Shown here one piece after another: positions 20,159 to 58,409 of a DNA stretch of 64,000 nucleotides. Numbering within the stretch: the stretch's first letter is position 1; each line of letters starts with the position of its first letter. The notes under the pieces are model-generated. The model saw only the letters and a program-made list of their open reading frames with translations, was not told the origin of the DNA and did not search any database. The DNA comes from Eukaryota sp. GEM-RC1 (taxonomy: Eukaryota): NCBI GenBank assembly GCA_040285855.1, contig JAUFOQ010000001.1:2356001-2420000 (forward strand). Direction: 5' to 3'. Position numbers and translations under genes: made by a program.

Positions 20159-21681
20159 TTATTCAACGATTTCAATCACATGATCACTATGCCATAACAA
20201 AGCATATGGATAATAATTACCACTACTTAATCTGGGAAGAGTTCCAGTAAGATTAATTGAAGAATTACTCACGGATTTGATTGTTAAAGTGTGGTTAATG
20301 AGATTTACATTGATTTCGAGTAATTCACCAGGATTCCACTGAGTTTTGTTTCCTGAGAGACAACCCCAAACATGATTACTATTGACAAAACCGTGAGCAT
20401 TCTCATAACAACGACCTTCAACACTAAACTTTGACTCGTCAATGACTGCAACAAAAAGATTACTAGTATGCCCCTGGTACCTCAACTTCCAAGTATACTC
20501 ATTACCTGGAAGAAGTGGATCTTCTCCCAAGATATTTCTATCCACAATACCACCACTTCCAATAACAACTCTCTTTCTATCCCCACTAACTTGTAACTGA
20601 GAATGTTTCTTAGTTGGGCAGAATCTAATCACTTTTGATTGAGGAACTGATTGAGACACCACTTGAGTTTCTGTAGTTGTCTTTTTAAGTTGTTCAATTT
20701 CTTGTTTTAGTTTAGCAATTTCGTAAGAGTTTTTAGTGGTTAAATTCTGAATATCAGTTGTTAAACTAGAAATTTGCCCAGATAAATCAGAATTGTTTGT
20801 CTTCAATTGCGAGTTTTCTGCCTTCAAGTCATGAATTTCCGTTTTTAAATCAGTAGTAAGTGAGTAAAAGGCAGAATTGTTGTTTTCTAAATGCGAACAT
20901 TTGGTCGTTAATTCAGAAACTTCCTTCACCAACGAATCAAAATAAAGATTCTTAACTCTTGTAAACAAAAACTTCATCAAATCGGCTTCCAATTCTTCAA
21001 CATTTTTTAAAGGTACAAACAGAAACTCATCCCATTGTTGAAAAGAAAAGGCTTCAATTGAGCAAGAATTGAGGATATTTAGAAACTCATTCAAATCAAA
21101 ACTTTGATTCAACACTGATTCCACCATTGATTTGATGAACCAAGATTGAGATTGAGTGGAAGTGCAGAATTTTGAAAGTGTTTGTAACCCTTCAGTAGTG
21201 ATTGCCATCACGTCATCAATCAGAAGGTCGACAACCTTGGAAAGAAAGGACCAGCGAATTCCAGAGCTCTCAAGTCATTTCTTTCATCTGCTTCTATAAT
21301 GAATGGGTTTAACCAAGCCCATGTTACGAGATGAGTGTTGAGGTGGTTTTCCACGTGGTCAATCAGTTCGTCCACTTGGAAATAGTGGACGAGATAGAAG
21401 AAGTCGTAAGCATTACTCTCCACGAGGGTGAAAGATCGTCCGAAGAAGGACTTGATGAAGGCAAGAAAGTTGTTAGAATCAACAGGGAGATGTGAGAAGT
21501 CGATTGGGTTTTCGTCTCTATCACCAAACTCCAAGAACCAAAGAGACCGAAAGTAGGTAGAATGAGCAGCAAGGATGACTCTGTGTACTTCAATAGACTC
21601 TTCTCCAAATGTAATGGTTTGATTACAGAGGCAAGGTTCATTGAGGATGATAGACTCTGCGGGGGAAAGGGAAAATGACAT
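20159..21681 (-). CDS. BTB-BACK-coiled-coil-PRY/SPRY protein (one 1-nt frameshift in an A/T run near 21241)
   Basis: BTB motif VHRVILAAHSTYFRSL, 9 heptads, SPRY (YTWKL..VIDE..YYPY). The single homopolymer frameshift may be an error. Confidence 0.85.
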
Positions 21682-21747
21682 GATATATCAATGTAAGAGG
21701 AGATGGGAAATGGTTCGGTTAATCCCACCAAAACGATAACATTGTAC

Positions 21748-21966
21748 AAGAAATTTGATTTCAAATTTTGGTTGAATCGTATTGTTTTTACAATATTTAA
21801 AACAATTCCTATCATGATTTCAAAAGCTCTATTAGCTCTCAGTGTTTTTTATGAAGAAAAAGCTGATGTGAGTTTTAATGGCAATGATTGTTGCTTTAAT
21901 GATATTGAATTCTAGTATTTGTGTTTATTTTAATGTTTTTAATAAAGAGAATTATTTAAAAAAAAA
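21748..21966 (+). mobile_element. 5'-truncated retrotransposon insertion with poly(A) tail and TSD
   Basis: Homologous to ~11296-11500, ends in an A run, flanked by (AA)CATTGTAC at 21740-21747 and 21967-21974. Absent from the paralogous promoter at ~45420-45450. Confidence 0.85.
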
Positions 21967-21974
21967 CATTGTAC

Positions 21975-22444
21975 CAGTGTTTGAAAACCACCCGGGTGGA
22001 AATGAAAACCACCCGGGTGCCACCAGTGCCACCCACCACCCGGGTGGCGTCTGGGTGGTACTGGGTGGATAATTTTGGTCTTACCATCATCTTCAATCCA
22101 TGACTTCCTGAATACATACTTCGTTGTTCAACGTGTCCTGAATACAATTATTTTAACGGGAGTTATTTCTAGGCTCGGAGAGGCTATTTATTTATTTTTC
22201 AGAGGGTTTTTGTAATCCCAAACCTAAATAAAGTACTTCATTGTTAGTTATTTTATATCACACACTGCTAAAGTACTTTCAGTTTCATTGTATATGGTGT
22301 ATAAAGTAGTTTTTGCACCAAAACTTATGTCTCGTACTTTATTGCCACCCGGTGACCACCCGGGTGGAAATGAAAACCACCCGGACGCCACCCGGTTCCA
22401 CCCACCACCCGGGTGGCGTCCGGGTGGAAAATTTTGGAACACTG
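21975..22444. mobile_element. Non-autonomous hAT-type MITE (470 bp)
   Basis: TIR CAGTGTT(TG/CC)AAAA, 8-bp TSD CATTGTAC, subterminal CACCCGGGTG palindromic repeats at both ends. Confidence 0.92.
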
Positions 22445-22808
22445 CATTGTACTACCATGCTTGTTATTCATCCTACACCTGCTCATCATATCCAATGATT
22501 CTATCTTTTGTACTCTATTACTTTCGACTAAGAACAGAGTTCCATTGCTCTTCCTCTCACCAACACTTCCTTGCACATCGACGTGATGAGGACTCCTTCA
22601 CTAAGGTAAACAATGATTAAATATCCCTGTCTACTTTCTTCACTTTCACTTGATGTTGGTAGTTCCTTCTTTCATTTGAAGCACTTCTCATTGATCTCAT
22701 ATAGACCTAGTAGGCACAACGTAGACTCTTTTGCCTTAAAACCATGGTTTTATGACCGATCCCTTAGTGGTCTACCAATGCTTCTTATCTGTTATTATTG
22801 TATTTTAA

Positions 22809-24233
22809 TGTTATTCATAGAATGCAGCAAAGTGCTGTTATAGATTCTGGTGTTGTGAATGACATGCTTAAAGAAATCGGAAATGCTCTTATATCGTCTG
22901 ATGTTAATCCTAAAACAGTGTTAGAACTACGTAAAAAGTGAAAGAATCGGTTGATCTTGACCAACTTGCGGCTGGTATCAACCGTCGTAAACTTCTCCAA
23001 CAAGCAGTAGTTGAAGCTCTAATCTCTCTACTAGATCCTCAAACCAAACCCTTTCAACCAACCAAAGGTAGATCAAATGTTGTAATGTTTGTTGGTCTCC
23101 AAGGTTCTGGTAATACCACTACTTGTACAAAATACGCTGCCTACTGGAAGAAGAAAGGTTGGAAAGTTGCTCTAGTCTGTGCTGATACCTTCAGAGCTGG
23201 AGCTTTCGATCAGCTGAAACAAAACGCCACACGTGTTGGTATTCCTTTCTACGGCTCTTACAGTGAAACAGACCCTGTCAAAATAGCAGCAGATGGTGTA
23301 GCAACCTTTAAGAAGGAGAAGTTCGACATCATTATTGTTGATACATCTGGCCGTCATAAACAAGAGGTAGCTCTCTTTGATGAAATGGAACAGGTATCAA
23401 GAACTGTTCAACCTGACGATCATATCTTTATCCTTGATGCTTCCATTGGTCAATCTGCTTATGATCAAGCTGTTGCTTTTAAAGAACGTGTTGCTGTTGG
23501 TTCAGTTATTATTACTAAGCTTGACGGTCATGCCAAGGGTGGTGGTGCCCTCTCTGCTGTAGCTGCAACTAAAGCTCCTATTACTTTTATAGGAACTGGC
23601 GAAGGATTTGAAAATTTTGAAGTTTTTAAAGCTGATTCTTTTGTTTCTAGGCTTTTGGGTTATGGAGATATTGAAAGTTTTGTTCGAACGATACAAGAGT
23701 CTGGGCTTGATACAGAAGAAACAACAGAGGCTTTTGAACGTTTAACTCAAGGAGAGTTTTCTTTTAGAGATTTACGAGATCAATTTGAAAATTTAGGAAA
23801 AATGAATTTATCGTCGATGCTGAGTTATATTCCTGGTTTGGGCAACCTAATACCAAGTGGTTCAGAAGAAGATGGAAAGAAAAGGCTACATCGATTTACT
23901 GTAATTATGGACTCAATGACTGAGAAAGAATTAGATTCTCCAAAGTTATTTGAGAAACAGAATCCATCTGCTGCTAGTAGGATCAATAGAATAGCAAAAG
24001 GAAGTGGATCTACTGTGAAGGAGGTGGCGCAGCTAGTGACTGAGTTTAAGAAGTTAGCCAAGATGGGGAGTAAGATGAAGGGACTAACGAATATGGGAGG
24101 TGGACAGATGAACCCTAGGAATATGCAGTCAATGATGCAAGGGTTGGATCCTCGAATGTTACAGAGTTTAGGAGGTGCAGGGAATATTCAGAAAATGATG
24201 AAGCAAATGGGAGGAAAGTTTCCTGGGATGTAG
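22809..24233 (+). pseudogene. SRP54: 5'-truncated SRP54 copy with P-loop K-to-N change
   Basis: Lacks the native ATG and first ~12 codons. A5 instead of A6 at ~22933. GSGKTT becomes GSGNTT (AAA to AAT at 23112-23114). Confidence 0.88.
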
Positions 24234-24346
24234 TGGTTTGATTGTAGATTTATTGACTGTGATTATAAACGTCACGTGTTTGTGAACTTTTGTCTTTTAT
24301 TATTTGTATGGAAAGAATTGTCCTATTTTAAATCTATGGTATTAAT

Positions 24347-24843
24347 TAGGGTTGTCAACGACTCAAGTCGAGTGACTTGACTTGTAAATTCCCAAGTCGA
24401 CTAGAGCAAAATGACTTGACTTGTTTATTAACGTGGGTGTGAGTGCTGATAGAAGTACATCATTAACCAATGCTCATCAATTTATTAGTTTAAATAAGTA
24501 AAAAAGATACACATAGACTGTAGTACTAGACCACAACTTCACCAATATTCTGACCAACGTCTTCGTCTTCGTCGTCACTACGGACTTCTAAGATATCATA
24601 ACCCTTTTCAGAGAAAAGCGACAATTTGGCATCTTGATTCACGATGTCTGATTTATATACTAGTTATTTAAAAAGTTGCAGTATTTGAGCATCTTACACT
24701 GATATTCAGTTGCCCGCCCTCTATAAAAAAGCGACATTACTTACAAGTCAAGTCGTCTTGACTTTGACTTGAGTCAAATGGGAAAAAATGACTTGACTCA
24801 ACTCGATCGACTTGCAACTTGAGTCAAGTAATTGGCAACCCTA
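24347..24843. mobile_element. hAT-type MITE, duplicate of 17081-17577
   Basis: Same TIRs and the same GTATTAAT TSD, copied with the segmental duplication. Confidence 0.92.
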
Positions 24844-26457
24844 GTATTAATTCACTGTTGATACATTGATTCAAGTGGTCTGAAAACTATAAAGACGACA
24901 GCGGGGTGGGGGAGAAAAACAAGCTCGGAAGTTCCTCGCGGGTAACCAGAAATCTAGATTAACTCTATTAGTTTCTGTGTAACATTTCCAGAATAACTAT
25001 AGTATAAAGTTGATACACCAAGTAGAACTAGCCTAAGACTCGTGAAGATATTCCTAGCTTTTCTAGGCCAAATGTGTTTTAAACATTGACCAATGATACT
25101 GTTAAGTACACGAAACAAAGTTTGTTCGCTGCTTTTTTGTAATACATAGTGGACCTTCTGATTTATTTCTCAATTTCTGAAGGTGTTTGGATTACATTTA
25201 TCTGATGAATCTTGGATGATCAACAGGTATTTTCGTTTGGCTATTTCCCCTGCAAATTAATTAAAATATTCAACTTGCTCATGTGGCGCTAATGGTTTTT
25301 TTCATCATTTATTCAATTACCGCTTTTTATCCATCTTCGTTCAGTTATTCATGATGGTGTACGTGATTCTTGTTATTCCACATTTAAAACACATGGCTTT
25401 CACTCTAAAGTTGAACCAATTTTGAATCACCTTTTTCAAAATGAATTTTCAAATCAACAGAGAGGGTATCTCCATACTCCGTGGCTTATATCGAGTCAAT
25501 CGTAGTTAATGATTCATTAATATATTTTACCACAGTAGATTTTAGTCAAATCTTGTGTTAGTAGAAGATTTTATTCTTCTTTTAATCCATTAACAACTGC
25601 TGAAAATATCAAAAGTTCCAAGTTTGACTCTTAAATAGAAGAGTTGAATCGAAAGTCATATTACAAACTTGTGTTTCAACCTTTTGCCTTTTCTCTTTTG
25701 AATCGATTAGTACTGCTGGATTTAGAAGAACTGAACTGTGTAAGGAAAAGAGGCGTAAGTTTAGAACGACTAAATGAAAATCCGTTCTGTGTTTTCCCTA
25801 TATATAAATGTGCATTTCTATTTCGTTTCTTTCGTTGAGAAACTGTACAAAATTGGTGTGAACGTTACTGTTGAACAACTTTATCTTTTACTAGATTGGA
25901 ATGAAGTCGTTTATATTTAGTCTCAGCATGATTTGTATATTTCGCAAATTCATATTTTTGTAGGAATATTACCGTTTTTGATACCGAATAAAGTAACAGT
26001 TCGATGAAAACAGTAGCAGTAATTGCATGTACTCAATGTAATCAATTCCTATTGTACACGTTTACAACATATGCAAATTCAAATATTGATAAATAAAATA
26101 ACCGGAAATAGTTCTTGTCGATTACCTTCGTACAGTGAAGATTATATAAACGAGGATTAAAAGAAATGCAGTCTGATTTTCATTGAAGAAACTACTGATT
26201 GTTGATTCGGAGTACGTGTTTAAATACATGCTTCTTAAGAATGATGACGTGCATTCTACGTGGCGTAATGTCAAAACGAAATAGATTATTGCAACTACCA
26301 ACCCTGTTAGTGACTATCCTGATTTCTGTTATTAATAGCAAACAGCACGTCTAGACATCGACTTCCATTATTTGATGTTTTTTCTCAGACTATCTTCAGA
26401 ATTCACAAAATACTGTTATTCGCTGCTTTAAATGAAAAGACTGAACTGTTATCAACT

Positions 26458-26991
26458 TTATTCAACTATTTCAAGTTCATGATCACTATAGGATAACAAA
26501 GCATACAAATAATAATTACCGCAACGTAATCTGGGAAGAGTTCCAGTAAGAAGAAATGTCGAATTACTCACCGATTTGATTGTTATAGTAAAGTCCGTGA
26601 GATTTACATTGATTTCAAGTAATTCACCAGGGTTCCACTTGGCCTTATATCCTGAGAGACCACCCGAAACGAAACCTGCATTGGCAATACAGTAAGTATC
26701 AACTCTACAACCACCTTCAACATTAAACTTTGATTCGTCAATGACTCCAACCCAAGGACCATTAGTATCCCCCTGATACCTCAACTTCCAAGTGTAATCA
26801 TTACGTGGAAGAAGAGGATTTTCTCCCAATATATGTCTAGCTCCTCCGAAATCAAGACTTCCATAAACAACTCTCTTTCGATCCTCACTAACTTGCATTT
26901 GGGGATGTTTCTTAGTTGGGGAGAATCTAATCACTTTTGATATGGTTTCGATACAGAGGGAAGGTTCATTGAGGGGAAGGGAAAACGACAT
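26458..26991 (-). CDS. SPRY-only mini-protein (family start fused in frame to PRY/SPRY)
   Basis: 177-aa ORF: MSFSLPLNEPSLC joins SKVIRFSPTKKH through a 4-residue linker (IETI). BTB, BACK and coiled coil are deleted. Confidence 0.7.
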   Translation of the reverse strand: MSFSLPLNEPSLCIETISKVIRFSPTKKHPQMQVSEDRKRVVYGSLDFGGARHILGENPLLPRNDYTWKLRYQGDTNGPWVGVIDESKFNVEGGCRVDTYCIANAGFVSGGLSGYKAKWNPGELLEINVNLTDFTITIKSVSNSTFLLTGTLPRLRCGNYYLYALLSYSDHELEIVE

Positions 26992-27422
26992 CAGAAGAAA
27001 AGCAAAGATAATCTTTTGTTAATCACATCTCAACAACAAAACAGTGACATCGTACCTCTGTCATTCATCCTACACCTGCTCATCATATCCAATGATTCTA
27101 TCTTTTGTACTCTATTACTTTCGACTAAGAACAGAGTTCTAGTTTAGGACTTATCCAAATAAGGATAAGACTAGTGTGGGTAAAACTAGGCATTTGTTTA
27201 GTACTTTTGTACAACAAATTTATGATAAATTCTATGTGTAATTGTTTTTATTTGTGTAGAATATTGAAATAACAATAATCTAGTACGATTTTCTGCTAGC
27301 ATTGAGACTATTGAAAATTGAGGTGATGTCTTCTATTTGAATCAGCTTCAGAATTTATAAATTAATTGGAATTTCGTTTTGAATGCGGAGACTTACAAAA
27401 AGTAATGAGAATGTTATCAATT

Positions 27423-28754
27423 TTATTCAACGATTTCAATCACATGATCACTATGCCATAACAAAGCATATGGATAATAATTACCACTACTTAATCTGGG
27501 AAGAGTTCCAGTAAGATTAATTGAAGAATTACTCACGGATTTAATTGTTAAAGTGTGATTAATGAGATTTACATTGATTTCGAGTAATTCACCAGGATTC
27601 CACTGAGTTTTGTTTCCTGAGAGACAACCCCAAACATCATTACCATTGTAAAAACAGTGAGCATTCACACAACCATCATCAACACTAAACTTTGACTCGT
27701 CAATGACTCCAACAACAAGATTACTAGTAGTCCCCTGGTACCTCAACTTCCAAGTATACTCATTACCTGGAAGAAGAGGATCTTCTCCCAAGATATTTCT
27801 AATACCATCACTTCCAGCTCCAACAACTCTCTTTCTATCATCACTAACTTGTAACTCAGAATGCTTCCTGGTGTGTGAGAACCTAATCATTTTTGATTGA
27901 GAAATCATTTCAGTTTCTGTAACTTTCTTTTTTAATTCTTCAACTTCACGGTTTAACTTAGCAATACTTGATACCAAGTCAGAATTTTCTTTCACCAAAG
28001 AGTTTGCACAACCATCTTTAACTTTTGTAAACAAAAACTTCATCAAATCGGCTTCCAATTCTTTAACATCTTTTAAAGGAACAATGAGAAACTCATGCCA
28101 TTGTTGAAAAGAAAGAGCTTCAATTGAACAAGAATTTAAAACATTAAAAAATTCATTCAAATCAAAACTGTGATTCAAAATTGATTCCACCGTTGATTTG
28201 ACGAACCACGATTGAGATTGAGTGGAAGTACAGTATTTTGAAAGTGTTTTTAACCCTTCAGTAGTGATTGCCATCACATCATCAATCACAAGGTCATCAA
28301 CCTTAGAAAAGAAAGGACCAACGAATTCCAGAGCTCTCAAGTCATGTCTTTCATCTGCTTCTTTCATGAATGGTTTTAACCAAGCCCAGGTCATGAGATT
28401 AGTGTTTAGGTGGTTTTCCACTTGTACAATCAATTTGTCCACTTGGAAGTAGTGGACAAGGTAGTAGAAGTCGTAAGCATTATTCGCATTGAGAGTGAAA
28501 GATCGTCCGAAGAAGGACTTGATGAAGGCAAGAAAGTTGTTGGAATTAACAGGGAGATGGGAGAAGTCGATTGGGTTTTCATCTCTGTCACCAAACTCCA
28601 AGAACCAAAGAGATCGAAAGTAGGTAGAATGAGCAGCAAGGATGATTCTGTGTACTTCAATAGACTCTTCACCAAATGTAATGGTTTGATTACAGAGGGA
28701 AGGTTCATCTAGGATGATAGAAAGAGTCTCTGCTGGGGGAAGGGAAAACGACAT
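27423..28754 (-). CDS. BTB-BACK-coiled-coil-PRY/SPRY protein, intact
   Basis: Uninterrupted ORF from the ATG at 28754 (443 aa), short coiled coil. Confidence 0.92.
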   Translation of the reverse strand: MSFSLPPAETLSIILDEPSLCNQTITFGEESIEVHRIILAAHSTYFRSLWFLEFGDRDENPIDFSHLPVNSNNFLAFIKSFFGRSFTLNANNAYDFYYLVHYFQVDKLIVQVENHLNTNLMTWAWLKPFMKEADERHDLRALEFVGPFFSKVDDLVIDDVMAITTEGLKTLSKYCTSTQSQSWFVKSTVESILNHSFDLNEFFNVLNSCSIEALSFQQWHEFLIVPLKDVKELEADLMKFLFTKVKDGCANSLVKENSDLVSSIAKLNREVEELKKKVTETEMISQSKMIRFSHTRKHSELQVSDDRKRVVGAGSDGIRNILGEDPLLPGNEYTWKLRYQGTTSNLVVGVIDESKFSVDDGCVNAHCFYNGNDVWGCLSGNKTQWNPGELLEINVNLINHTLTIKSVSNSSINLTGTLPRLSSGNYYPYALLWHSDHVIEIVE

Positions 28755-29449
28755 CAGGATCAATGCAAAAGGAGCTGAGAAATGGTTCGGTTAAGCTCAA
28801 GTCAAAAAACAACAAACAGTGACATCGTACCACTGTCATTCATCCTACACCTGCTCACCATATCCAATGACTCTATCTTTTGTACTCTATTACTTTCGAC
28901 TAAGAACAGAGTTCTATTGCACTCCCTCTCTCCAACACTTATCTACATCATCTACATGATGATGATTCCTTCACTATGGTAAACAATGATGATATGAAGT
29001 TTTTCTTCTTTCTATTCCTCTTCACTTGATGTTCATAGACTAAGACTCAATGATAGTTCTATTAATCATGCAAATCACTTCTGACTGACATTCTAGGCAT
29101 ATCAAAGACACTCAATCTTCGTTGCCCAATTCTAATCTAAAGTACATTTTCTGGAAACATCAGCAGTCCAAGTCTTCATTCAAGCAATGATGATGAACAC
29201 ACTGCCAATTGTTCCTTAAAAGCCAATGCTGATCTATCTGATTAATATTTACTCTTTTACACAAAGATATGACAACAACGTTTTTGAAATCTAGGTCATC
29301 ATCACCTACAATAAACATCCTTTAAACTGTGGAAAAGGTGACGCCTGAAGAAGTATTATTCTTTCTGAATTCGTCACTCATGAACCAGGTTTTACAAGTT
29401 CTTTCTATCTAGTTCAATCTGTGTATGAAGAAATTTCCTACACTCTGAG

Positions 29450-30583: not shown

Positions 30584-30664
30584 CTAGGAAATTACATGTT
30601 TCATGAAGAAGTTCCCTGTCGACACCTAAAATAACTTTCTATTAGAGTGACACATTCCAGAAAA

Positions 30665-36109: not shown

Positions 36110-37170
36110 AATTTCTCAAATTCTTTTGCTTTTTCACCATGGAGATAAGGAGACTGGTAGGGACGCAGATGACGCCAACCACTATTCTCAAATATATTTT
36201 GACACGAGAATGACATTTCTGTTCTCAATACTTTTTGCAGCAAACCAAGTTTTGATTGCTGAAAAGTGATTGTTCCCGAACCTTACGTCGTAAAAGCCTA
36301 TAAAAAGTCTCAATTGGGTTACACTCGGGACAATACGGCGGGAGTATCAAGTGTTTTACTCCCGCAAGTCGCAGAGCTCGGTCAATGTAAGGTGATTTAT
36401 GTATATTGTAACCATCAACTTTTAGTATTGATCGAGGGCCCCCGGTGGTGGATAGTATTCTGCGATAAATAAGGTCTCCAATAAAGTTGACATAACCTGT
36501 ACGAGAGAAATGTCCCTTTTGAATATGGAATAATAATAGACCGTTGACGTCGATAGCAACCATTAGGATTATTTGAATCGACTAAATGTTGGATGTTCCA
36601 CACGCAGAAGCTGACCCTTCGGACTCCAACCTTTGTTTCGAACAAAGTGTTCAGACTTGAATGAGACTTCATCTATGAACACGAGCTGTTGTGGTATCAC
36701 TACTCCGATTTGATAACGGAAAGAAAACACAACGTTTTCTATTAGCTGTTTTTTTGCTCTGCGCATTAGATTGCAACACTTCTTGTAAGTGAATCCATTA
36801 TCGATCAGAGTTCTGTGAATGGTACTCACACTAACTTTTTTCTTGAAGCTCGTAAGGATGAGTTTTGATACTTCACGTAAGAAGAGGAGAGGTTGATTAC
36901 GGATGAGGTCAAGTACAAAGGAAACTTCAGCTTGGTTAAGAAGTTGACTGGAGGAAGTGGAAGAGGGTGAAAACAGAGACCTGTTCGAAGAAATGCTACG
37001 CTCAGGGAAAATTTTTCGTAGCCAGTCACGGTAGATTGAGCAACATCAGCTTGAGTCTTGTTGAGAAAGACCAACGTATAAATGGCGCGAATCTTCGTAT
37101 CTTCACTGGCATGAAGTTTCAGACTTCGTAAGTCAGCGCCTGAGAGAAGAAGATCAATAGGAGCACCCAT
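36110..37170 (-). mobile_element. IS630/Tc1-mariner DD34E transposase, frameshifted
   Basis: HTH (STIHRTL..GFTYKK), LVFIDEVSF..GWSPKG, VDGYNIHK..LILPPYCPECNPIE, with 34 residues between the second D and E. Split over three frames. Confidence 0.88.
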
Positions 37171-45490: not shown

Positions 45491-47055
45491 ATGTCATTTT
45501 CCCTTTCCCCGCAGAATCTATCATCCTCAATGAACCTTCCCTCTGTAATCAAACCATTACATTTGCAGAAGAGTCTATTGAAGTACACAGAGTCATCCTT
45601 GCTGCGCACTCCACGTATTTTCGGTCTCTTTGGTTCTTGGAGTTTGGTGATAGAGACGAAAACCCAATCGACTTCTCTCATCTCCCTGTTGATTCCAACA
45701 ATTTTCTGGCCTTCATCAAGTCCTTCTTCGGAGGATCTTTCGCCCTTGTGGAGAGTAATGCTTACGACTTCTTTTACCTCGTCCACTACTTCCAGGTGGA
45801 CGAACTGATTGACCACGTGGAAAACCACCTAAACACTCATCTCGTAACCTGGGCTTGGTTAAAACCATTCATTATAGAAGCAGATGAAAGAAATGACTTG
45901 AGAGCTCTGGAATTCGTTGGTCCTTACTTTTCTAAGATTGATGACCTTGTGATTGATGACGTGATGGCAATCACTACTGAAGGGTTAAAAACACTTTGCA
46001 AGTACTGTACTTCCACTCAATCTCAATCGTGGTTCATCAAATCAATGGTGGAATCAATTATGAATCAAAGTTTTGACTTGAATGAGTTTTTGAATGTTTT
46101 AAATTCCTGTTCAATTGAAGCCTTTTCTTTTCAACAATGGGATGAGTTTCTGTTTGTTCCTTTAAAAGATGTTGATGAATTGGAAGCGGATTTGATGAAG
46201 TTTTTGTTTACAAGAGTTAAGAATCTTTATTTTGACTCGTTGGTGAAGGAAAATTCTGATTTGAAGGAAGAAAATTCTGAATTGAACATTCAAAATTCTG
46301 AATTAACTACCAAATGTTCGGATCTAGAAAGTAACAATTCTGAGTTAAACACACTTACTACTGATTTAACAACGGAAAATCATGATTTGAAGACAGAAAT
46401 CTCTCATTTGAAGACAACAATTTCTGAGTTAGAAACAAACAATGCTGGTTTAACAACTGATATTCAGAATTTAACTGCTACAAATTCTAACGAAATTGCT
46501 AAACTGCAACAAGAAATTGAACAACTTAAAAAGTCAACCAAAGAAACTCAAGTCGTGTCTCAATCAGTTCCTCAATCAAAAGTGATTAGATTCTCCCCAA
46601 CTAAGAAACATTCTCAGTTACAAGTTAGTGGGGATAGAAAGAGAGTTGTTGTTGGAAGTGGTGGTGGTGGTGTGAGAAATATCTTGGGAGAAGATCCACT
46701 TCTTCCAGGTGATGAGTATACTTGGAAGTTGAGGTACCAGGGGGGTACTGGTGGTCTTGTTGTTGGAGTAATTGACGAGTCAAAGTTTAGTGTTGATGGT
46801 TATTGTTGGGGGAATGCTCACTGTTTCCACAATGGTAATAATGTTTTTGGTTGTCTCTCAGGAAACAAAACTAAGTGGAATCCTGGTGAATTACTCGAAA
46901 TCAATGTAAATCTCATTAACCACACTTTAACAATCAAATCTGTGAGTAATTCTTCAATTAATCTTACTGGTACTCTTCCCAGATTAAGTAGTGGTAATTA
47001 TTATCCATATGCTTTGTTATGGTATAGTGATCATGTGATTGAAATAGTTGAATAA
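45491..47055 (+). CDS. BTB-BACK-coiled-coil-PRY/SPRY protein, longest coiled coil
   Basis: Open from ~45510 to the stop. The native ATG at 45491 is out of frame by one missing C in a C run, possibly an error. 11 heptads. Confidence 0.88.
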
Positions 47056-47242: not shown

Positions 47243-47444
47243 TTACACATAGAATTTATCATAAATTTGTTGTACAAAAGTACTAAACAAATGCCTAGTT
47301 TTACCCACAATAGTCTTATCCTTATTAGGATAAGTCCTATTAGTCAACAAAACTAAAGCTAAATCACGTGTAGGATCAATACAGACCATAGTGCCAGTAT
47401 ACCCTAAATGCATAAAAGTCTCAGGCGCCAAAGTTCCACAAGAA
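47243..47444 (-). pseudogene. 3' 200-bp fragment of the beta-lactamase-fold gene
   Basis: Near-identical to ~51945-52146 (CGTLAPETFMHLGYTGT..DKFYV*). Confidence 0.92.
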
Positions 47445-47479
47445 GTTGCGACCCGTCATGGCGAATTCCGTCAAATGAC

Positions 47480-48181
47480 AGGTCTAACTTAAACTCACTC
47501 ACTACTGAATTGATGGAGGAAAATCATGATTTGAATACAACAGTTTCTGATTTATCCACACACATTTCTGATTTAACAACTGATTTTCAGAATCTAACTG
47601 CTACAAACTCTTACGAAATTGCTAAACTAAAACAGGAAAACGAACAACTTAAAAAGACAATTACAGAAACTCAATTGATGTCTCAATCAGTTCCTCAATC
47701 AAAAGTGATTAGATTCTCTCCAACTAAGAAACATTCGCAGTTACAAGTTAGTGGGGATAGAATGAAAGTTTTTGTTGGAAGTGGTGGTAATGTAATTGGA
47801 AATATCTTGGGAGAAGATCCACTTCCTCCAGGTAATGAGTATACTTGGAAGTTGAGGTACCAGGGGACTACTTGTAGTCTTATTGTTGGAGTCATTGACG
47901 AGTCACAGTTTAGTGTTGAAGGTCGTTGTTATGATTATGCTCACTGTTTTGAGAATGATTGTGATCGTATTACAGGTTGTCTCTCAGGAAACAAAACTAA
48001 GTGGAATCCTGGTGAATTACTCGAAATCAATGTAAATCTCGTTAATTACTCTTTAACAATCAAATCCATGAGTAATTCTTTAATTAATCTTACTGGACCT
48101 CTTCCTAGATTAAGTAGCGGTAATTATTATCCATATGCTACGTTATGGCGTGATGATCATGTACTTGAAATAGTTGAATAA
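47480..48181 (+). pseudogene. 5'-truncated coiled-coil-PRY/SPRY copy (no BTB), open frame
   Basis: Family homology starts mid coiled coil. A possible ATG lies at 47513. It lacks the conserved upstream block. Confidence 0.8.
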
Positions 48182-49098: not shown

Positions 49099-49632
49099 CA
49101 CCAATCGGTTTAATTAATCTGGATAAAGATTAGTCTGGACTAGAAATAGTCTGGTCCAGATTAATAATACACTAGACACGGTCCATAAATCAGTAGCAAT
49201 CTTTGGTATCTAAAGAGTAAATACACTTTGAATGTAATAGATAATTAAACGAAAAAATTGACGAAGATATAACATCGATTTTTGGTCGTTTATAATTCAA
49301 GATGCTGCGAAGTTCCAGTTGCAGTTTGAATTAAGAGAATGTGTTTATTAATGTCCTGAAATTGTAACAAATCAAAAAAAGCTTTCATACAAAATAATTT
49401 TTGAGTTCTTTGTAGTGTCAACTAAGTTTGTAGAACAACAATTATGATGATGTAAACAACAAAAGGATCCAGACTATTTTATTTTCTCAACAATTAGTCT
49501 GATCCAGACTAAATATCTATTATGTAAATTAGTCTGGACTAGAAATAGTCTGGGCCAGACTAATTCTTATTTTTGGGGTCTAAAAACCTTTATAAGACTT
49601 AGTCTGGTCCAGACTATTTAAACCGATGGGTG
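49099..49632. mobile_element. Tc1/mariner-type MITE
   Basis: TIR CACC(A/C)ATCGGTTTAA flanked by TA on both sides. Subterminal TAGTCTGG/CCAGACTA repeats. Confidence 0.85.
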
Positions 49633-50706
49633 TAGTTACCAAGGGGTGAGCCATAAAAACGACAATGTTCCTCTTGGTAGCGGATCATAAAAACTTTATC
49701 TGATGAGGACCATACAGTACTGTCTCAGTGTCTTGCTCACACATTCGCGATAGCTTCTGATTTCCGTTCCCAAAATAAACTGGTTATCTTAAAGTTGATT
49801 TTGTAAGACAAACGTGCGAAACCAGTGTATATCAGTCGCATTATTATTACCGTATATTGAGCATTATTCAAATTTGAGGAAAACAGCTACAGCGTCGTGT
49901 GTATTTTTTAAATGATTCAAATTTGAAGTTAAATATATGATGGTACAAGGCAAAAATTAATTAACATTACTGACAGAAATTGATGTGATCAATGAGGAAT
50001 GATATTATGTAGTGATATCGGGTATCACAGGTAAACACATGTATCATGTACTACTATCAAAAATTTAATGAAGATCGAAAACGACCACCAATATATTATA
50101 GTATTGGTACAACTTGCTTTGTGATAACATGCACCGGATCGGTGGAATTAACAACTCTCAACAAATGACTTGTTGTTATGAGAAAATTGCAAGTTGAACC
50201 ATATTTGACATTGTAAACACATAATCATATAGGTGTTGTCAATTTGTTTTTAATCCCGTAGTCTATTCTACTAATGTTTTAAATATTTTTCTCATAACAT
50301 TAATGTAATTCAGACCTACTTCTATTTCATGCTGAAAGAAAGAATTGGCGATGACCTTGAAGATTTGTGCTTTCGTATAACATGGAATGTACACTCCATC
50401 AAGAATCGTGAAAATGAGGTGAAACATTTCAAGTCATACATCTGTCTTGGTTGTACTTTACAACCAAGAATTCGTTGTAATAATTTACAATCATACATTT
50501 GGTTGCTTCCATAAGTTGTTAAAATTGGTTCTTCTTCACGAATATACTCCAGTCATCAATTTACTAAACGAGATGCACTGACTTCCTGTCATAATTAACA
50601 CCGTCATCTCAAATCCATATAGTGCAATTTACTGAAGGTCGAAAATCAATTCCAATAAATTGCAATACCGATACCGTTAATCAGTGAGAAGAAAAGTAAA
50701 AATATG

Positions 50707-50779
50707 CTCCCGTGTAGGGACTCGAACCCTAAATCGTTCGATTAAAAGTCGAACGCGCTACCAGTTACGCCACGCGGGA
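50707..50779 (-). tRNA. tRNA-Lys (anticodon TTT)
   Basis: 73-nt cloverleaf: acceptor TCCCGCG/CACGGGA (one C-A mismatch), anticodon arm TTCGA-CTTTTAA-TCGAA, T arm TAGGG-TTCGAGT-CCCTA, followed by a T5 Pol III terminator. Confidence 0.93.
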
Positions 50780-50866
50780 TCACAACTTCCATGATCGTTG
50801 CTAGAACGTGTCGGGTAATGATATTCATTTAAACCAAGAGAAGATTTGATCAGACTCCGAGACCAA

Positions 50867-52146
50867 ATGTATCATCTTCTATCACTCCTCCTCTTGGTCA
50901 TCACCTCGTGTGCTGTTGATTGGTCCCCAGTTGATAGTCTCTTACAACAGGGTATTCAAAACAAGATTTATCCTGCTGCTCATGGTCTTGTGTATTCCAA
51001 AACCAAGGGCTTAATCTACGACAAGACTTTTGGTTATTTCTCTTATGGAGAACCACTTCCCTATAACCCCGTCCCACCCAAAGTCACCCAAACCGCAATC
51101 TGGGATATGGCTTCGTGTACCAAAGTCATTGCCACCACATCTGCCGTTGCTCAATTCTACGAACGTGGAGAACTTCCCCTAGATCTCCCACTCTCACATC
51201 CTTCTCTTCTTGGATCTTCCTTCGCTCAGTCTGGAAAGGACAAGATCACAGCCCGTCACGTACTCACCCACAGTTCTGGATTCCCCCCGATCCTTTCCCT
51301 AACTTCATGTCCAAGAACTTTGGCTGTCCAGCTTCCCGTCACACTCCTCCCACTGAAACCTTCTCTTGTATTCCTCAGATCCACACTGCTCTCATGAAGC
51401 AAACCCTGGCTCGTCAACCCGAGGAAAAGTATGTGTATTCAGATCTATCAATGATGACGATGGCTTACGTGGTAGGATCATTGGCTCGTAGACATGGTTA
51501 CGTCATGGATACAGATCTAGAGGATCACTGTAAACTTTTCATCGATGTTGAGCTCTACTCTGACGTGTCAACACTTCCCATTGATCTCTGCTACTATCGA
51601 GCCTACGTCATGAAGTATGCTCTTAAACCCGAGTTTGAATCTGATCAAATGTTGTTTTCCGTCCCTTCCACTCGTAAACCCCAATGCCTTCCTCAATGGA
51701 ATGCCACTGATGTTGGCCGTGGTATCATTCAGGGCTCAGTAAGTGATGAGAACTCTTATGCTGCTGGAGGAGTACTGGGTCATGCTGGACTCTTCTCAAC
51801 TGGAAAGGGAATGCTCTCTTTTGTCAAGAGAATTCTTGAGAATGATGTTGTGAATGCCACGACATTAAAGACCTTTGGTACAGTGGCTAATAGTACTTTC
51901 TCATCACGTGCTCTGGGGTGGGATACCAATTATCCTGATGGATATTCTTGTGGAACTTTGGCGCCTGAGACTTTTATGCATTTAGGGTATACTGGCACTA
52001 TGGTCTGTATTGATCCTACACGTGATTTAGCTTTAGTTTTGTTGACTAATAGGACTTATCCTAATAAGGATAAGACTAGTGTGGGTAAAACTAGGCATTT
52101 GTTTAGTACTTTTGTACAACAAATTTATGATAAATTCTATGTGTAA
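50867..52146 (+). CDS. Secreted beta-lactamase-fold serine hydrolase (AmiE/YbbE-like), with a 1-nt frameshift in the C run near 51285
   Basis: Signal peptide MYHLLSLLLLVITSCA, SxxK (ASCTK), LTHSSG, YSD, VSDEN..GGVLGHAGLFST, HLGYTGT, LLTNR. The two ORFs join if one C is added. Confidence 0.88.
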
Positions 52147-52321
52147 TTGTTTATATTTGTTATAAGTGCAATGTTCTGATATGATATTCTGTTAGCACTG
52201 ATACTACAGAAAACCCAGGTGATGTCTTCAAGGTTTTGAATCAGCTTCAGAATTTACAAATTAATTGGAATTTCGTTTTGAATGAGGAGACTTACAAAAA
52301 GTAATGAGAATGTTATCAATT

Positions 52322-53713
52322 TTATTCAACTATTTCAATCACATGATCACTATGCCATAACAAAGCAAATGGATAATAATTACCGCCACTTAATCTGGGA
52401 AGAGTTCCAGTAAGATTAATTGAAGAATTACTCACGGATTTGATTGTTAAATTGTGATTAACTAGATTTACACTGATTTCGAGTAATTCACCAGGATTCC
52501 ACTGAGTTTTGTTTCCTGAGAGACAACCCCAAACATTATTACCATTGTGGAAACAGTGAGCATTCGAATGACAACCACCATCAACACTAAACTTTGACTC
52601 GTCAATGACTCCAACAGCAAGATTACTAGTATGCCCCTGGTACCTCAACTTCCAAGTATAAACATTACCTTGAACAAGTGGATCTTCTCCCAAGATACTT
52701 TTCATACCATCACTTCCAGCTCCAACAACTTTCTTTTTATCATCGCTAACTTGGAACTGAGAATACTTTCTGGTGTGTGAGAATCTAATCACTTTTGACT
52801 GAGGATCAGCAATACTTTCTAATGTAGTTTTTCTAAATTCTTCGATTTCACATTTTAACCCAGAAATTTCGGTGACAAATTTCATGTTATCTTCTTGTAA
52901 AGTAGAAATTTGATTCTTCAAATCAGAGTTCTCTTCCTTCAAATCAGAATTTTCCTTTTCCAACGAATCGAAATAAAGATTCTTAATTTTGGTGAACAAA
53001 AACTGCATCAAATCAGTTTCCAATTCTTCAACACCTGTTAAAGGAACAAACAGAAACTCATTCCATTGTGAATAAGAAAGAGCTTCAATTGAGCAAGAAT
53101 TTAAAACATTTGAAAATTCATTTAAATCAAAACTTTGATTCAAAATTGATTCCACCATTGACTTGATAAACCACGACTGTGATTGACTTGAAGTGCAGTA
53201 TTTTGAAAGTGCTTGTAACCCTTCAGTAGTGATTGCCATCACGTCATCAATCACAAGGTCGTCAACCTTGGAAAAGAAAGGCCCAACGAATTCCAAAGCT
53301 CTCAAGTCATTCCTTTCATCTGCTTCTTTAATGAATGGTTTTAACCAATCCCATGTTACGAGACGAGTGTTTAGGTGGTTTTCAACAAGTTCAATCAATT
53401 TGTCCACTCGGAAGTAGTGGACAAGATAGTAAAAGTCATAAGCATGGTTGTCATTGAGGGTGAAAGATCCTCCGAAGAAGGACTTGATGAAGGCCAAAAA
53501 GTTGTTGGAATCAACAGGAAGATGGGAGAAGTCGATTGGGTTTTCATCTCTATCACCAAACTCCAAGAACCAAAGAGATCGAAAGTAGGTAGAATGAGCA
53601 GCAAGGATGAATCTGTTCACATCAATAGAGTCTTCTCCAAATGTAATGGTTTGATTACACAGAGAAGGTTCATTGAGAATGATAGATTCTGCTGGCGGAA
53701 GGGAATATGACAT
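52322..53713 (-). CDS. BTB-BACK-coiled-coil-PRY/SPRY protein, intact
   Basis: Uninterrupted ORF from the ATG at 53713 (463 aa), tail-to-tail with the beta-lactamase gene. Confidence 0.92.
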   Translation of the reverse strand: MSYSLPPAESIILNEPSLCNQTITFGEDSIDVNRFILAAHSTYFRSLWFLEFGDRDENPIDFSHLPVDSNNFLAFIKSFFGGSFTLNDNHAYDFYYLVHYFRVDKLIELVENHLNTRLVTWDWLKPFIKEADERNDLRALEFVGPFFSKVDDLVIDDVMAITTEGLQALSKYCTSSQSQSWFIKSMVESILNQSFDLNEFSNVLNSCSIEALSYSQWNEFLFVPLTGVEELETDLMQFLFTKIKNLYFDSLEKENSDLKEENSDLKNQISTLQEDNMKFVTEISGLKCEIEEFRKTTLESIADPQSKVIRFSHTRKYSQFQVSDDKKKVVGAGSDGMKSILGEDPLVQGNVYTWKLRYQGHTSNLAVGVIDESKFSVDGGCHSNAHCFHNGNNVWGCLSGNKTQWNPGELLEISVNLVNHNLTIKSVSNSSINLTGTLPRLSGGNYYPFALLWHSDHVIEIVE

Positions 53714-55169
53714 CAGGATCAAGACAAAAGGAGATGAGAATACGTCCAGTTCAACTACAAAAATAGTATAGGAGAAATCGTATCACTTGTTGACACCGTA
53801 GAGTGACGTGGCATGTAGTCAATAGTATTGTGTATTCTTGTTATAAATCTTTTCTTGCTTCCTTGACAAAGGCTAACATCACTATCATTCATCCTACACC
53901 TGCTCATCATATCCGATGACTCTGATTCTATCTTTTGTACTCTATTACTTTCGACTAAGAACAGAGTTCCATTGCACTTTCTCTATCCAACACTTTTCTT
54001 CATCTACATGATTAAAATTCTTTTACTAATGTAAACAATGATGCTGATTCTCGCTCTTCTTTCTTCACCTTCCCCTGGTGTTGAAAATTCTGTCTTGCAT
54101 TTGAACCACTTATTATTGATATCATAGACACTTTGGTGATGTTTACTTTTGACATTCTTTATGGATTAACTTTTGTCTTGACTCACCTTGTTTTATTATT
54201 ATTCTCCAAGAACTGGTTCTTCTTCAAATCAATTAGGTAAAGATGAAATCTGGTTTCCAATTGTGTTGATAGCCGTTGTTCCTTTTTTTACTTCTTACTT
54301 TTGTGTTACACAGATCATCATTTGTACTGTTAATAAACTGAGTGTTCTAAATTACACATACAATGGTGACATCTTCTTGAACAATCATCTATGGTGAGCT
54401 TCTTTTCTATAACTCCTGCCATGACCTATTACATGCATTGTACCATTATTGTGTCCTACTGCAGTTTAATTTCTTTAAAGAATATCTTCGTCAAGGTTTT
54501 TTTTACACTGTTTTATTTTATTATAAATGTAATAGATCAAACAACTAAAATTTGATATCATTAAAACAACACCCGTCGCTATCGAACCTTACAACAGCTT
54601 TGTCCTCATAACAGGAACTCACTACTAATAAAGCTTTGGAGATGATTAGGGGAATTGTTTTGGAAACAGTAGTCAAGATAGTGGTAGCTAGGAATAGCCA
54701 AACCTTGTAATTCTGAGATTTATTGTTGTCCTGCTGATCTGTGAATTTTTAGTTGGTGAGATGCAGACACTACAATGTAGTTTAGGTACAAATTAGAAAC
54801 ACAGAGAACTAATTCTCTCAAGTCATGTTGATTTATGCTCTCACCATCAAATACGTGTGCATTGTGTTCAACTTTAAGTGTTTGACTAAAACACTACTGA
54901 TGCAATCCAAAATACATACGTTTTCGCATTATTTATTGAAGAATACAAATTAAAATATATTTTACCCTGACAGTTGATGACGTCATTATTCTTCTGGATT
55001 CTTTAACCTACAAGAAAATTGAATTCCCATTTCCTAGGACGAGACAATCCGGACCAGTCACATACGCGCTAATGAACAATAGAGTTCATATTTAAGGTAA
55101 AAGCGAGGGGGAACCAGAAGTCGGGTGAGAAGATTCACTTCTTGAGAGATTTGAAAGACAACTTCCAAC

Positions 55170-56353
55170 ATGACAACAGCATTGTTAGGTTTTTCCTCTA
55201 GAAATTCTTCATTAGAATCTCAGGACAGAGTCCATCAGTACTCTAAACTTGCAGACACACTTAAAACAGTCCACAAACATCGATGCGGAAAACATCGTCT
55301 TTTGTCGAAATCTCTTACTTCCCAATACCCAGAGGCTTCACTACTCTTGAATATCAGAAAACTTGAACATTCTGCCGAAGCCTTACTTTCTCGTGTTCGT
55401 CTTGAACAATCATATCCCTTCAACTACGTCAATGCTTCCTTTTTTCCTGTCTCCTTCACAGCTTCATTCTCTTTCAAAAGGAAGGTACTCTATGCACTGT
55501 AACTTTTACCCCTTCTAATCTCATTTGTCCCATTCTCCAACAGCTCTACACTTCTAACCTGTCAGACAACGTTCTCGTAAACTCATGTACTCTCTCTGTA
55601 TCATCTTATCGTGATAACAGACCTATCCTCTCTACCCCCATCTCAATAACCTCTTCAGAACCTCAGTCATTTGAGTTCAACTCTAACTGCAAGGTTCTAC
55701 GACTTACCATCGACATTGAACCTCATCTCAAAACTTCTCTCTTCTCCCCTTCCCCTCTTCTGTCTTCAATAATGTCTAGCATCGGTTCCCTCCCCCCTCC
55801 CATTGCTGTCTCCCTTCCCCAAACTCTCTCAGCAGTTCTCAAGTACGCAATGACTAGGGGTTGTGTCAATGACCAAATGAAGGTAATAGCTGGAAGAGAT
55901 GAGCTCATCACTCAACTCATATCCCCTCAGATGGCAGTCGACTCAGTTGATCTCGTCTCTTTCGTCCTTGCTCAGCTCAAGCTCTCAACTCCAAGTGCTC
56001 AAGTAATGATCAACTCCAATACTAGATTATCCATGGATTGCAGGTTTGAAGTATCACCGAGGCTGTCTGGGGACTTGATATCTAACGAGGTTGAAGCAGA
56101 GAGACCTTGGGTTGATGACGTGATTGATGTTGCTTGGAGGAGGTGTGAGTTGTTGAAGGAGAGTGTGATTGATCCCTGTGGTAGTCTGTCAAATTTGATT
56201 GGATCGTATAGTGATGAGATGAAGGTGTTGAAGCAGTTTAATTCACCAGTTGAGGAGCGTAGTGGTGAGGTGTTTAGGAAATCTCCTGAGATTAGCACTA
56301 TTTTAGCTCAACGAATGTCTTTAATGAACAAAAGTCAACGTGCAAGCAAATAG
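55170..56353 (+). CDS. Divergent SWIB-domain BAF60/SMARCD-like subunit, one 59-nt intron (55485-55543)
   Basis: Removing GTACTC..CTAAT..CAACAG joins ORF 55170 in frame to ORF 55772. Motifs LLNIRKLEHSAEALLSRVRLE, SPSPLLSSI..LSAVLKYA and SPVEERS resemble SMARCD/Snf12. Confidence 0.65.
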
Positions 56354-56723
56354 TATTGGTTTATTTGATGGTTTTGGATTATTTATTTAAGGAAGTTTGT
56401 GTCTGTGTTATTAATTGTTAAACAACAGCAATAGAAATGTATTGCACTGTAATAAACCATTCATAAGTCAGTCACTCTTCAGTATTCATTTTAACATTTG
56501 ACTGGAGTTGATTCGAAGTTGGATGTTACGAATTCTGTATTCTGCTGCTTCTCGTCGTTTAACTTCTCTTTCTGTGGATTCTAGGGTCATTGCAAAAGAA
56601 GAAGTTGCAAAGGGTATTGCTGAAGTTCTTACCAAAAATTAACAAAAGATTTACGTATCAGATTTCAATAAATTACACTGAATTGAATAGAAAATTCTAT
56701 TCAGTTGATGTAAAGTGTTTTTT

Positions 56724-56805
56724 CTACTTGGAATGGATTATCTGGAAGTAATGGATTTTCTCCCAAGATATTTCTGAATAGACTACGGCCACTTCCATAT
56801 ACAAC
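56724..56805 (-). pseudogene. Tiny SPRY loop-1 remnant
   Basis: Reads VVYGSGRSLFRNILGENPLLPDN. Confidence 0.7.
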
Positions 56806-57037
56806 TGCATAACATCCGAGAATAATTACTAAGTAATTCGAGTTCTAATTTGATAGTTTGTAAATTACACATTGAACTGGGTTTATGCTACTAGTAGCAA
56901 GATTGAACAACATTAAGCATGGTTTTTACTAACTTTTTGACTGTAAACTTCCAGGGTGTGTTCTAATGAAATTAGATGCATTAATTATTCACAGAGTAGA
57001 GTAATTTTGAGACTTACACGTGAAAAAGATGTCAACT

Positions 57038-58409
57038 TCATTCAACTATTTCAAGCACGTGATTATAAAATAAGATAGCACAAAGATAGTAATTACCACT
57101 ACTTAATCTGGGAAGAGTTCCAGTGAGATTAATTGAAGAATTACTCACGGATTTGATTGTTAAAGTGTGATTAATTAAGTTTGCATTGATTTCGAGTAAT
57201 TCACCAGGATTCCAGCTAGTTTTGTTTCCTGAGAGACAACCAAAAACATTATTACCATTGTGGAAACAGTGAGCATTCCCCCAACAATCACCATCAACAC
57301 TAAACTTTGACTCGTCAATTACTCCAACAACAAGATTATCAGTATACCCCTGGTATCAACTTCCAAGTATACTCATTACCTGGAAGAAGTGGATCTTCTC
57401 CCAAGATATTTCTCCACCCACTACCACCACTTCCAAAAACAACTCTCCTTCTGTCCCCACTAACTTGTAACTCAGAATGTTTCTTAGTTGGAGAGAATCT
57501 AATCACTTTTGATTGAGGAACTGATTGAGACACCACTTGAGTTTCTGTAGTTGTCTTTTTAAGTTGTTCAATTTCTTGTTTTAGTTTAGCAATTTCGTTC
57601 GACTTTGTAGCAGTTAAATTCTGAATTTCAATTGTTAAGTCATAATTTTCCTTCACCAAAGAGTCAAAATAAAGATTCTTAACTCTTGTGAACAAAAACT
57701 TCATCAAATCGGCTTCCAATTCTTCAACGTCTTTTAAAGGAACAAACAGAAACTCATCCCATTGTTGAAAAGAAAGAGCTTCAATTGAGCAAGAATTTGA
57801 GATACTTGGAAATTCATTCAGATCGAAACTGTGATTCAGAATTGATTCCACCATTGATTTAATCAGCCAAGACTGTGATTGAGTGGAAGTGCAGAATTTT
57901 GAAAGTGTTTGTAACCCTTCAGTAGTGATTGGCATCACGTCATCAATCAGAAGGTCATCAATCTTAGAAAAGAAAGGACCAGCGAATTCCAGAGCTCTCA
58001 AGTCATTTCTTTCATCTGTTTCTTTAATGAATGGTTTTAGCCAATCCCAGGTAACGAGATTAGTGTTTAGGTGGTTTTCCACTTGTACAATCAGTTTGTC
58101 CACTTGGAAGTAGTGGACAAGATAGTAAAAGTCATAAGCATTGTTCTCGTTGAGGGTGAAAGATCGTCCGAAGAAGGACTTGATAAAGGCAATAAAGTTG
58201 TTGGAATCAACAGGCAGATGAGAGAAGTCGATTGGGTTTTCGTCTCTATCACCAAACTCCAAGAACCAAAGAGACCGGAAGCAGGTAGAATGAGCAGCAA
58301 GGATGACTCTGTGTACTTCAATAGACTCTTCTCCAAATGTAATGGTTTGGTTGCATAGGTAAGGTTCATCGAGGATGATAGATTCAGCTGGGGGAAGGGA
58401 ATATGACAT
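57038..58409 (-). pseudogene. BTB-BACK-coiled-coil-PRY/SPRY gene with a 2-nt deletion in SPRY
   Basis: TTGATACCAG versus TTGAGGTACCAG in paralogs (~57355). The rest of SPRY continues to a TGA at 57038-57040. Only 2 heptads. Confidence 0.85.

Follow-up and report, generated by a model that had tools for sequence, protein, structure and literature searches.

Expanded families of SPRY receptors that are positively selected and shuffled by gene conversion are already known from fish, mammals and parasitic nematodes. The zebrafish NLR-B30.2 genes are described as a large lineage-specific family, located mostly on one chromosome among other genes, whose C-terminal SPRY/B30.2 domains carry positively selected hypervariable loops that gene conversion has been proposed to spread and combine (PMC4852459). 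Here, we analyse a BTB-coiled-coil-SPRY gene family with nine copies in a 64,000-nucleotide stretch of DNA (the window) of Eukaryota sp. GEM-RC1 (contig JAUFOQ010000001.1, positions 2,356,001 to 2,420,000 of the forward strand). Skoliomonas sp. GEM-RC is a free-living bacterivorous metamonad from soda lakes; the main text of its description does not contain the terms BTB and SPRY, and its supplements may list these families (PMC11316075). The literature that we searched contained no published account of this family. It probably represents a recent expansion in which the SPRY loops change rapidly and are moved among copies by ectopic recombination, and whose products serve as ubiquitin-ligase adaptors for shifting foreign targets.

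The zebrafish genes are the closest precedent, and the family appears to work like them without being a member. As in zebrafish, the copies are concentrated on one contig, relationships are incongruent from domain to domain and the SPRY loops are under positive selection; by contrast, the head is a BTB-coiled coil without NACHT or leucine-rich repeats (LRR), the host is a unicellular metamonad, and exchange spans the whole gene, whereas in zebrafish it is confined by group (PMC4852459). Vertebrate TRIM-SPRY ligases such as TRIM5 and the finTRIMs likewise join a ubiquitin-ligase-type head and a coiled coil to a variable SPRY (PMC3503706, PMC2533329), but the window genes are not TRIMs because BTB stands in place of RING-B-box, neither RING nor B-box being detected in them by Pfam. 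The nematode SPRYSECs, secreted SPRY-only parasite effectors, are also built on an expanded SPRY scaffold whose hypervariable loops are positively selected (PMC5071358). Unlike these, the genes studied here are BTB fusions of a free-living cell, with no signal peptide evident at their N-terminus. The F-box and MATH-BTB expansions of nematodes and plants are cullin adaptors evolving by birth and death, in which the ligase-binding head is conserved and the substrate-binding tail positively selected; here, the variable module is SPRY instead of MATH, FTH or FBA, and loop-sized exchange occurs. In the chicken immunoglobulin (Ig) system, one functional segment receives one-way copies from an upstream pseudogene cluster, and there, as in trypanosome variant surface glycoproteins (VSG), short homologous tracts alter variable loops (PMC3924843). 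Tract-wise homologous exchange in variable regions was found here too, but no single recipient, one-way flow from pseudogenes or donor array.

If our interpretation is correct, the same design of innate recognition extends to a distant eukaryotic branch, in a free-living anaerobic flagellate, and offers a cultured system for asking what protists defend against. Its main weight lies in a TRIM-like repertoire in a free-living protist and not in donor cassettes, a version suggested in a preliminary description of this DNA that would have mattered more and is not supported.

Gene copies, domain architecture and family size

Searching the translated window with the 45491 gene as query recovered nine copies and a degenerate fragment:

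Copy A, 9226 to 10771, plus strand: BTB-coiled-coil-SPRY gene, likely a pseudogene, with two single-base homopolymer frameshifts and an in-frame TGA, all 5' of an open SPRY.
Copy B, 19194 to 19727, minus strand: SPRY-only; an internal deletion joins the first BTB codons to SPRY, and the family 5' element is retained.
Copy C, 20159 to 21681, minus strand: BTB-coiled-coil-SPRY gene with one homopolymer frameshift near 21240.
Copy D, 26458 to 26991, minus strand: SPRY-only, with an intact 177-aa frame and a SPRY identical to that of copy B.
Copy E, 27423 to 28754, minus strand: intact BTB-coiled-coil-SPRY gene; its SPRY begins as in copy H, and its loop 4 and 3' flank are C-like.
Copy F, 45491 to 47055, plus strand: BTB-coiled-coil-SPRY gene with one homopolymer frameshift just past the start; its domain at 46579 to 47052 was used for structure prediction.
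Copy G, 47477 to 48181, plus strand: 5'-truncated, with coiled coil and open SPRY, starting directly after the duplicated 3' flank of copy F.
Copy H, 52322 to 53713, minus strand: intact BTB-coiled-coil-SPRY gene, tail to tail with a whole beta-lactamase-like gene.
Copy I, 57038 to 58409, minus strand: BTB-coiled-coil-SPRY gene with a two-base frameshift within SPRY near 57357; loop 3 in common with copy F.
Degenerate SPRY fragment, 56731 to 56805, minus strand: behind copy I.

Copy D had been missed in the preliminary description. Compared with it, copy B has two compensating homopolymer indels, and the SPRY of copy B is the most divergent in the window.

Full copies consist of a BTB (PF00651, E 1.7e-14 and 2.6e-13), a helical region, a coiled coil of variable length and a C-terminal domain of 158 aa. 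Pfam gives only BTB and coiled coil in these genes. The structural model of the C-terminal domain of copy F, built from a 57-row alignment, reached a predicted local distance difference test score (pLDDT) of 96, and it matches the RanBP9/10 SPRY (Foldseek E 3e-9) and the TRIM67 PRY-SPRY (Z 18.0, root-mean-square deviation 2.5, 149/158 aligned). Atlas features likewise assign it at 0.96 to SPRY clusters. Identity to solved SPRYs is 9-20%, and a sequence search of solved structures with the domain gave no meaningful match. Over its whole length, the domain is thus predicted to form a SPRY beta-sandwich. An N-terminal BTB followed by a separate C-terminal domain, with a predicted role in substrate binding, is the layout of BTB-type Cullin-3 adaptors. 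The BTB would probably bind a Cullin-3 ligase and the targets would probably be proteins that come from viruses, intracellular bacteria or mobile elements, which would give the family an immune role.

Evidence beyond the window consists of protein sequences. Three protein searches (86, 33 and 3 new) yielded 122 family members, 114 labelled 'Eukaryota sp. GEM-RC1' and eight encoded in the window; by manual tally of the tables, 101 of the 122 lie on one contig of 3.98 Mb. Among the first 119 proteins, 109 match the SPRY domain (86 complete, 13 ending inside it and 10 starting inside it) and 52 combine a complete BTB with a complete SPRY, all these counts being approximate because the database merges sequences that are more than 90% identical and because some frameshifted genes are entered as two halves.

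Loop diversity and exchange between copies

The loops are not a reusable cassette set: among 61 paralog domains (69 minus one identical twin and seven damaged ones), the number with a unique loop is 60 for loop 1, 60 for loop 2, 61 for loop 3a, 61 for loop 3b and 58 for loop 4. Most of this diversity appears to be point change under positive selection. In the window DNA, the ratio of non-synonymous to synonymous change (omega, or dN/dS) is 3.0 at 23 variable sites, picked from 57 non-window paralogs, against 0.32 elsewhere (p 7e-10), and pairwise dN/dS is 1.6-2.0 in loops versus 0.47-0.49 in the framework. Model M2a is preferred over M1a (p 2e-11), with omega of 6.5 on 10% of sites (32, 56, 77, 78, 84, 88, 90 and 148), and this preference holds on a star tree and on copies C, E, F and H alone. 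Recombination can inflate both the omega contrast and the support for M2a, which multi-base changes inflate as well. Residue choice is site-specific, with aromatic residues favoured at sites 77, 90 and 148, and the residues that abound at the variable sites are G, S, Y, N, F, R, D, H and W, as expected of a binding surface. The same richness has been described for SPRYSEC loops (PMC5071358).

Onto this point change is superimposed recombination, which extends over the whole gene, including the BTB half. Three features of the window are needed to follow it:

First arm of a tandem duplication, 15540 to 20373: identity ends inside the SPRY of copy C.
Second arm of the tandem duplication, 22808 to 27637: contains a truncated SRP54, copy D and the 3' part of copy E.
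Tract over loop 3 common to copies F and I, approximately 46770 to 46873, plus strand: loops 2 and 4 on either side are divergent.

The two arms are 99.8% identical over 4.8 kb, with 11 substitutions and seven indel events, and from 20374 on copies C and E differ by ~13%, an identity step (p 2e-35) that falls within SPRY between codons 88 and 114. Copy C shares an identical loop 4 and 3' flank with copy E and is close to copy F in its 5' part; copy F is itself a mosaic with a C-like BTB, an I-like loop 3 and an H-like 3' flank. In the quartet C, E, F and H, 47 sites from the 5' flank to loop 1 support CF|EH and four CE|FH, whereas for loop 4 and the 3' flank the counts are 0 and 23 (Fisher p 2e-15 for the flip); in the quartet A, C, F and I, the BTB favours AI|CF by 14:0 and the next region AF|CI by 10:5 (p 2e-4). 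A statistic of triplet mosaicism exceeded 500 single-tree simulations, which keep site rates in place, for eight SPRY domains (copy D, whose domain equals that of B, being omitted), for their framework sites taken separately and for six full coding regions (p=0.002 each); the N-terminal half by itself gives p 0.04. Across the family, 27 of 45 full-length proteins are mosaic over their whole length above all 12 simulations, and 29 are so in the N-terminal half; correlations between domain segments of these 45 proteins are below those of all 100 simulations.

Shared tracts can be recognized individually as well. Eight of 3,916 pairs among 89 domains have 8-20 identical variable sites in a run, the maximum after shuffling being 8. 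P0021 and P0092 have loops 2-3 in common and differ at 5/5 sites before and 3/3 sites after; P0023 carries loops 1-2 as in P0037 and loop 3 as in P0068; loop 3 is common to P0019/P0025, F/I and P0069/P0094; and most of the domain is common to P0016/P0006 and P0104/P0051. The tracts in P0021/P0092, P0023, P0019/P0025 and F/I are internal and loop-sized, while the C/E step is a single crossover or the end of a duplication. A recent shared tract is present in only 15 of the 89 domains, and loop 3 of F/I compared with the next framework segment alone gives p 0.10. The naive form of a longest-identical-run test was dropped as confounded by rate differences.

These results bear out the observation of the preliminary description that sharing along the gene is incongruent, to an extent that exceeds chance, and support its inference that segmental exchange recombines loops. 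All the motifs quoted there occur in the genes named: copy C carries VIGSGG, HTSNL, VEGRCY and LLWHSDHV, CWGNAHCFHNGNNVFGCL occurs in both F and I, whose loop 4 and 3' flanks are unrelated, and RFSHTRK..VVGAGSDG is common to copies E and H. Two of them carry less weight than was given to them: GSGG in loop 1 is uninformative because it is the family consensus, and the LLWHSDHV of copies C and E stems from the single 4.8 kb duplication.

We envisage a receptor family evolving by birth and death, in which new loop variants arise in any copy by point change under diversifying selection, that undirected homologous exchange among dispersed copies, intact or broken, would then recombine them, and that duplications would leave truncated copies as by-products.

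Besides the inflation of M2a, several results weigh against this interpretation. The C-terminal domain matches no Pfam family at E 0.05, the SPRY model included. Synonymous differences are also higher at variable codons (0.22 versus 0.10), so a local mutational component may contribute. In triplet tests on the protein domain alone, none of the 45 proteins exceeds the maximum of 12 simulations. The pairwise homoplasy index (PHI) is not significant on the eight window DNA domains (p 0.14-0.43) or, in raw form, on the 61 protein domains (p 0.98-0.99), the latter because clustered variable sites raise local homoplasy; with an ad hoc rate correction, it becomes significant on these 61 domains at short range only. 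Finally, the internal loop-sized tracts fit gene conversion and double crossover alike.

Neutral, templated and artefactual alternatives

The family could be a by-product of a duplication-prone chromosome, with unconstrained loops and neutral exchange, a genomic drift of the kind reportedly argued for plant F-box genes. The star-like trees agree with it, as do the tandem duplications, transposon remnants and numerous truncated copies of the window, but a loop-site omega well in excess of 1 against about 0.3 in the framework, the aromatic preference at three of these sites and the conserved codons inside loops, which vary little (0.024 synonymous differences), make drift unlikely.

In the scheme of the preliminary description, patterned on VSG and chicken Ig, silent broken copies would donate loop tracts one way to a single expressed gene or a small number of them. 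Tracts of loop size between divergent flanks do exist, the SPRY frames at 9226, 19194 and 47480 (copies A, B and G) are open as it reported, and three of the eight tract pairs join one partner without complete BTB to a complete one. Nonetheless, we consider such templating very unlikely. The potential recipients are at least 52 complete genes instead of one or a few; exchange partners show no excess of broken copies (8/15 complete versus 52/89 overall); no loop of copies A, B and G has an identical match in the 57 non-window paralogs; and 13 paralogs break inside SPRY. Copies A, B and D keep the family 5' element, and copy D is an intact SPRY-only frame. The only source that can be traced in the window is an intact gene: the beta-lactamase-like tail is found in the 3' flank of copies C, E, F and H, and, because the gene is whole only beside H, this copy is the likely origin of the 3' segment that follows C, E and F, barring a second whole copy elsewhere. 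The set of damaged copies is also larger than initially listed, copies C and F being frameshifted as well and copy I within SPRY itself. One of six lesions in full-length copies falls inside SPRY; the probability of finding 0 of 3 lesions there is 0.33 and that of finding no more than 1 of 7 is 0.31, so that this placement is chance-like and open SPRY frames are unremarkable. Private framework changes (non-synonymous:synonymous) amount to 10:4 in A, 23:11 in B and 11:3 in G, no different from the 10:2 of intact H in a comparison of low power (neutral 3.55). In these data, nothing marks the broken copies as dedicated donor cassettes.

Homopolymer indels are typical consensus errors of long reads. 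Four of the six lesions are single-base losses in homopolymer runs, where A and F are hit in the same run, as are A and C; a neighbouring gene that is probably single-copy also carries a homopolymer indel, and six of the seven indel events in the 4.8 kb duplication are single bases in runs. Many frameshifts are thus likely assembly errors, and the count of truly broken copies is uncertain for this reason. These indels are also what favours reading the mosaics as chimeras made in assembly or polishing between similar repeats, a highly improbable explanation given that shared tracts bear later changes, which chimeras would not carry (3/95 differences in F/I, 13/117 in E/H, and likewise in P0023/P0068), that 11 substitutions separate the duplication arms and the P-loop of the second SRP54 is altered, and that mosaicism is genome-wide.

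Least probable is targeted mutagenesis, in which a process like that of diversity-generating retroelements or another hypermutation would write the variable codons: these differ more at positions 1 and 2 (0.48 and 0.52) than at position 3 (0.32), are mostly T-ending and C-poor and have raised synonymous change, and fragments resembling non-long-terminal-repeat (non-LTR) elements lie nearby, but codons outside the NNY pattern, among them TGG, GAG and GTG, are common, third positions vary, residue choice is site-specific and the window self-comparison revealed no template-like copy. An origin by a diversity-generating retroelement is not supported, given these departures from NNY codons; neither a template repeat nor a dedicated reverse transcriptase was seen within the window.

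Other heads on the same SPRY clade and genomic surroundings

A family of selected, exchange-prone ligase adaptors, the interpretation that we favour, has relatives with other heads. This SPRY follows a kinase in five GEM-RC1 proteins, four of them with an N-terminus that looks RING-like by eye (Sina_RING below cut-off in two). P0077, P0080, P0081, P0082, P0084 and P0124 combine a RING-like region, a kinase and a coiled coil with the same recent SPRY, up to 84% identical to that of copy F; therefore, heads have been swapped as well as loops. A SPRY profile search of 1.84 billion representatives produced 54 matches, 41 of them new. Of 20 new ones looked up, 14 belong to GEM-RC1, five to 'Eukaryota sp. 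TZLM1-RC', which we take to be Skoliomonas litria, and one is weak. The heads among 22 scanned proteins include BTB, kinase, RING with two B-boxes, B-boxes (P0140), MLKL_N with kinase and B-box (P0125), UBA and Ras-BTB; those other than BTB are modules of ubiquitin or signalling pathways. Among distant SPRY domains, the tree has poor resolution.

The skoliomonad proteins P0137 and P0150 have RING and two B-box stretches above Pfam cut-offs, a coiled region visible by eye and a SPRY (E 8e-24 and 4e-15), so that, judged by domain order, they appear to have the full RING-B-box-coiled-coil-SPRY arrangement of TRIMs. SPRY-bearing TRIMs have been placed in animals only (PMC3503706, PMC2533329), and the genes reported outside animals in one of these accounts are only of the MATH-type TRIM37-like kind (PMC3503706). 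A limited literature search found no protist TRIM-SPRY case, which is weak evidence of absence. RING or RING-B-box heads would ubiquitinate targets directly. Tentatively, skoliomonads may have built a TRIM-like cell-autonomous immunity independently of animals, in which a hypervariable, selected and loop-shuffled SPRY (~90 genes) is mounted on interchangeable heads (BTB, RING-kinase, RING-B-box-coiled coil, and MLKL-like bundle with kinase) that would destroy the target or kill the cell.

Two recurrent elements flank the window copies:

3' end of the beta-lactamase-like gene, 51945 to 52146, plus strand: fragments lie behind copy F (202 nt) and behind copies C and E (97 nt).
Family 5' element displaced from copy C by an insertion, 22462 to 22657, minus strand: also present 5' of A, B, D, E, F, H and I, but not of G.

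The beta-lactamase-like fragments mark the direction of the flank duplications. Copies B, D and G begin directly behind duplicated 3' flanks, and G therefore reads as a casualty of such a junction. The gene beside copy H (50822-52146), which may have come from bacteria, encodes a beta-lactamase-family serine hydrolase with a signal-peptide-like start; it is split by a frameshift near 51285, in a run of C. The 5' element (~110-200 bp) is non-coding, conserved at 81-96% upstream of the copies, and likely a promoter or 5' untranslated region. The insertion that separates it from copy C (21748-22461) contains three CATTGTAC 8-mers and two pieces. The first is AT-rich, poly-A-ended and ~220 bp long, with copies at 11290-11488 and 54492-54661; the second, with short terminal inverted repeats, internal GC-rich repeats and an 8-bp target duplication, is presumably hAT-like by the length of that duplication.

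The window is otherwise a gene-dense eukaryotic stretch encoding SRP54, Brix, Mago, ArfGAP and iPGM. The second SRP54 (22935-24233), inside the tandem duplication, is 5'-truncated and has a Lys to Asn change in its P-loop. A leucine-rich-repeat protein (LRR_6, 3410-4741) possibly represents a second expanded family. Four fragments without Pfam match (2044-2718, 6474-6647, 17924-18427 and 25195-25691) resemble what we take to be the C-terminal zinc-knuckle and restriction-like endonuclease of non-LTR retroelements, and a DDE transposase remnant with weak DDE_3 and HTH matches lies at 36225-37045. The split of iPGM, considered as an assembly frameshift, was instead explained by a short GT-AG intron of ~34 nt (62880-62915) with a CTAAC branch-like motif.

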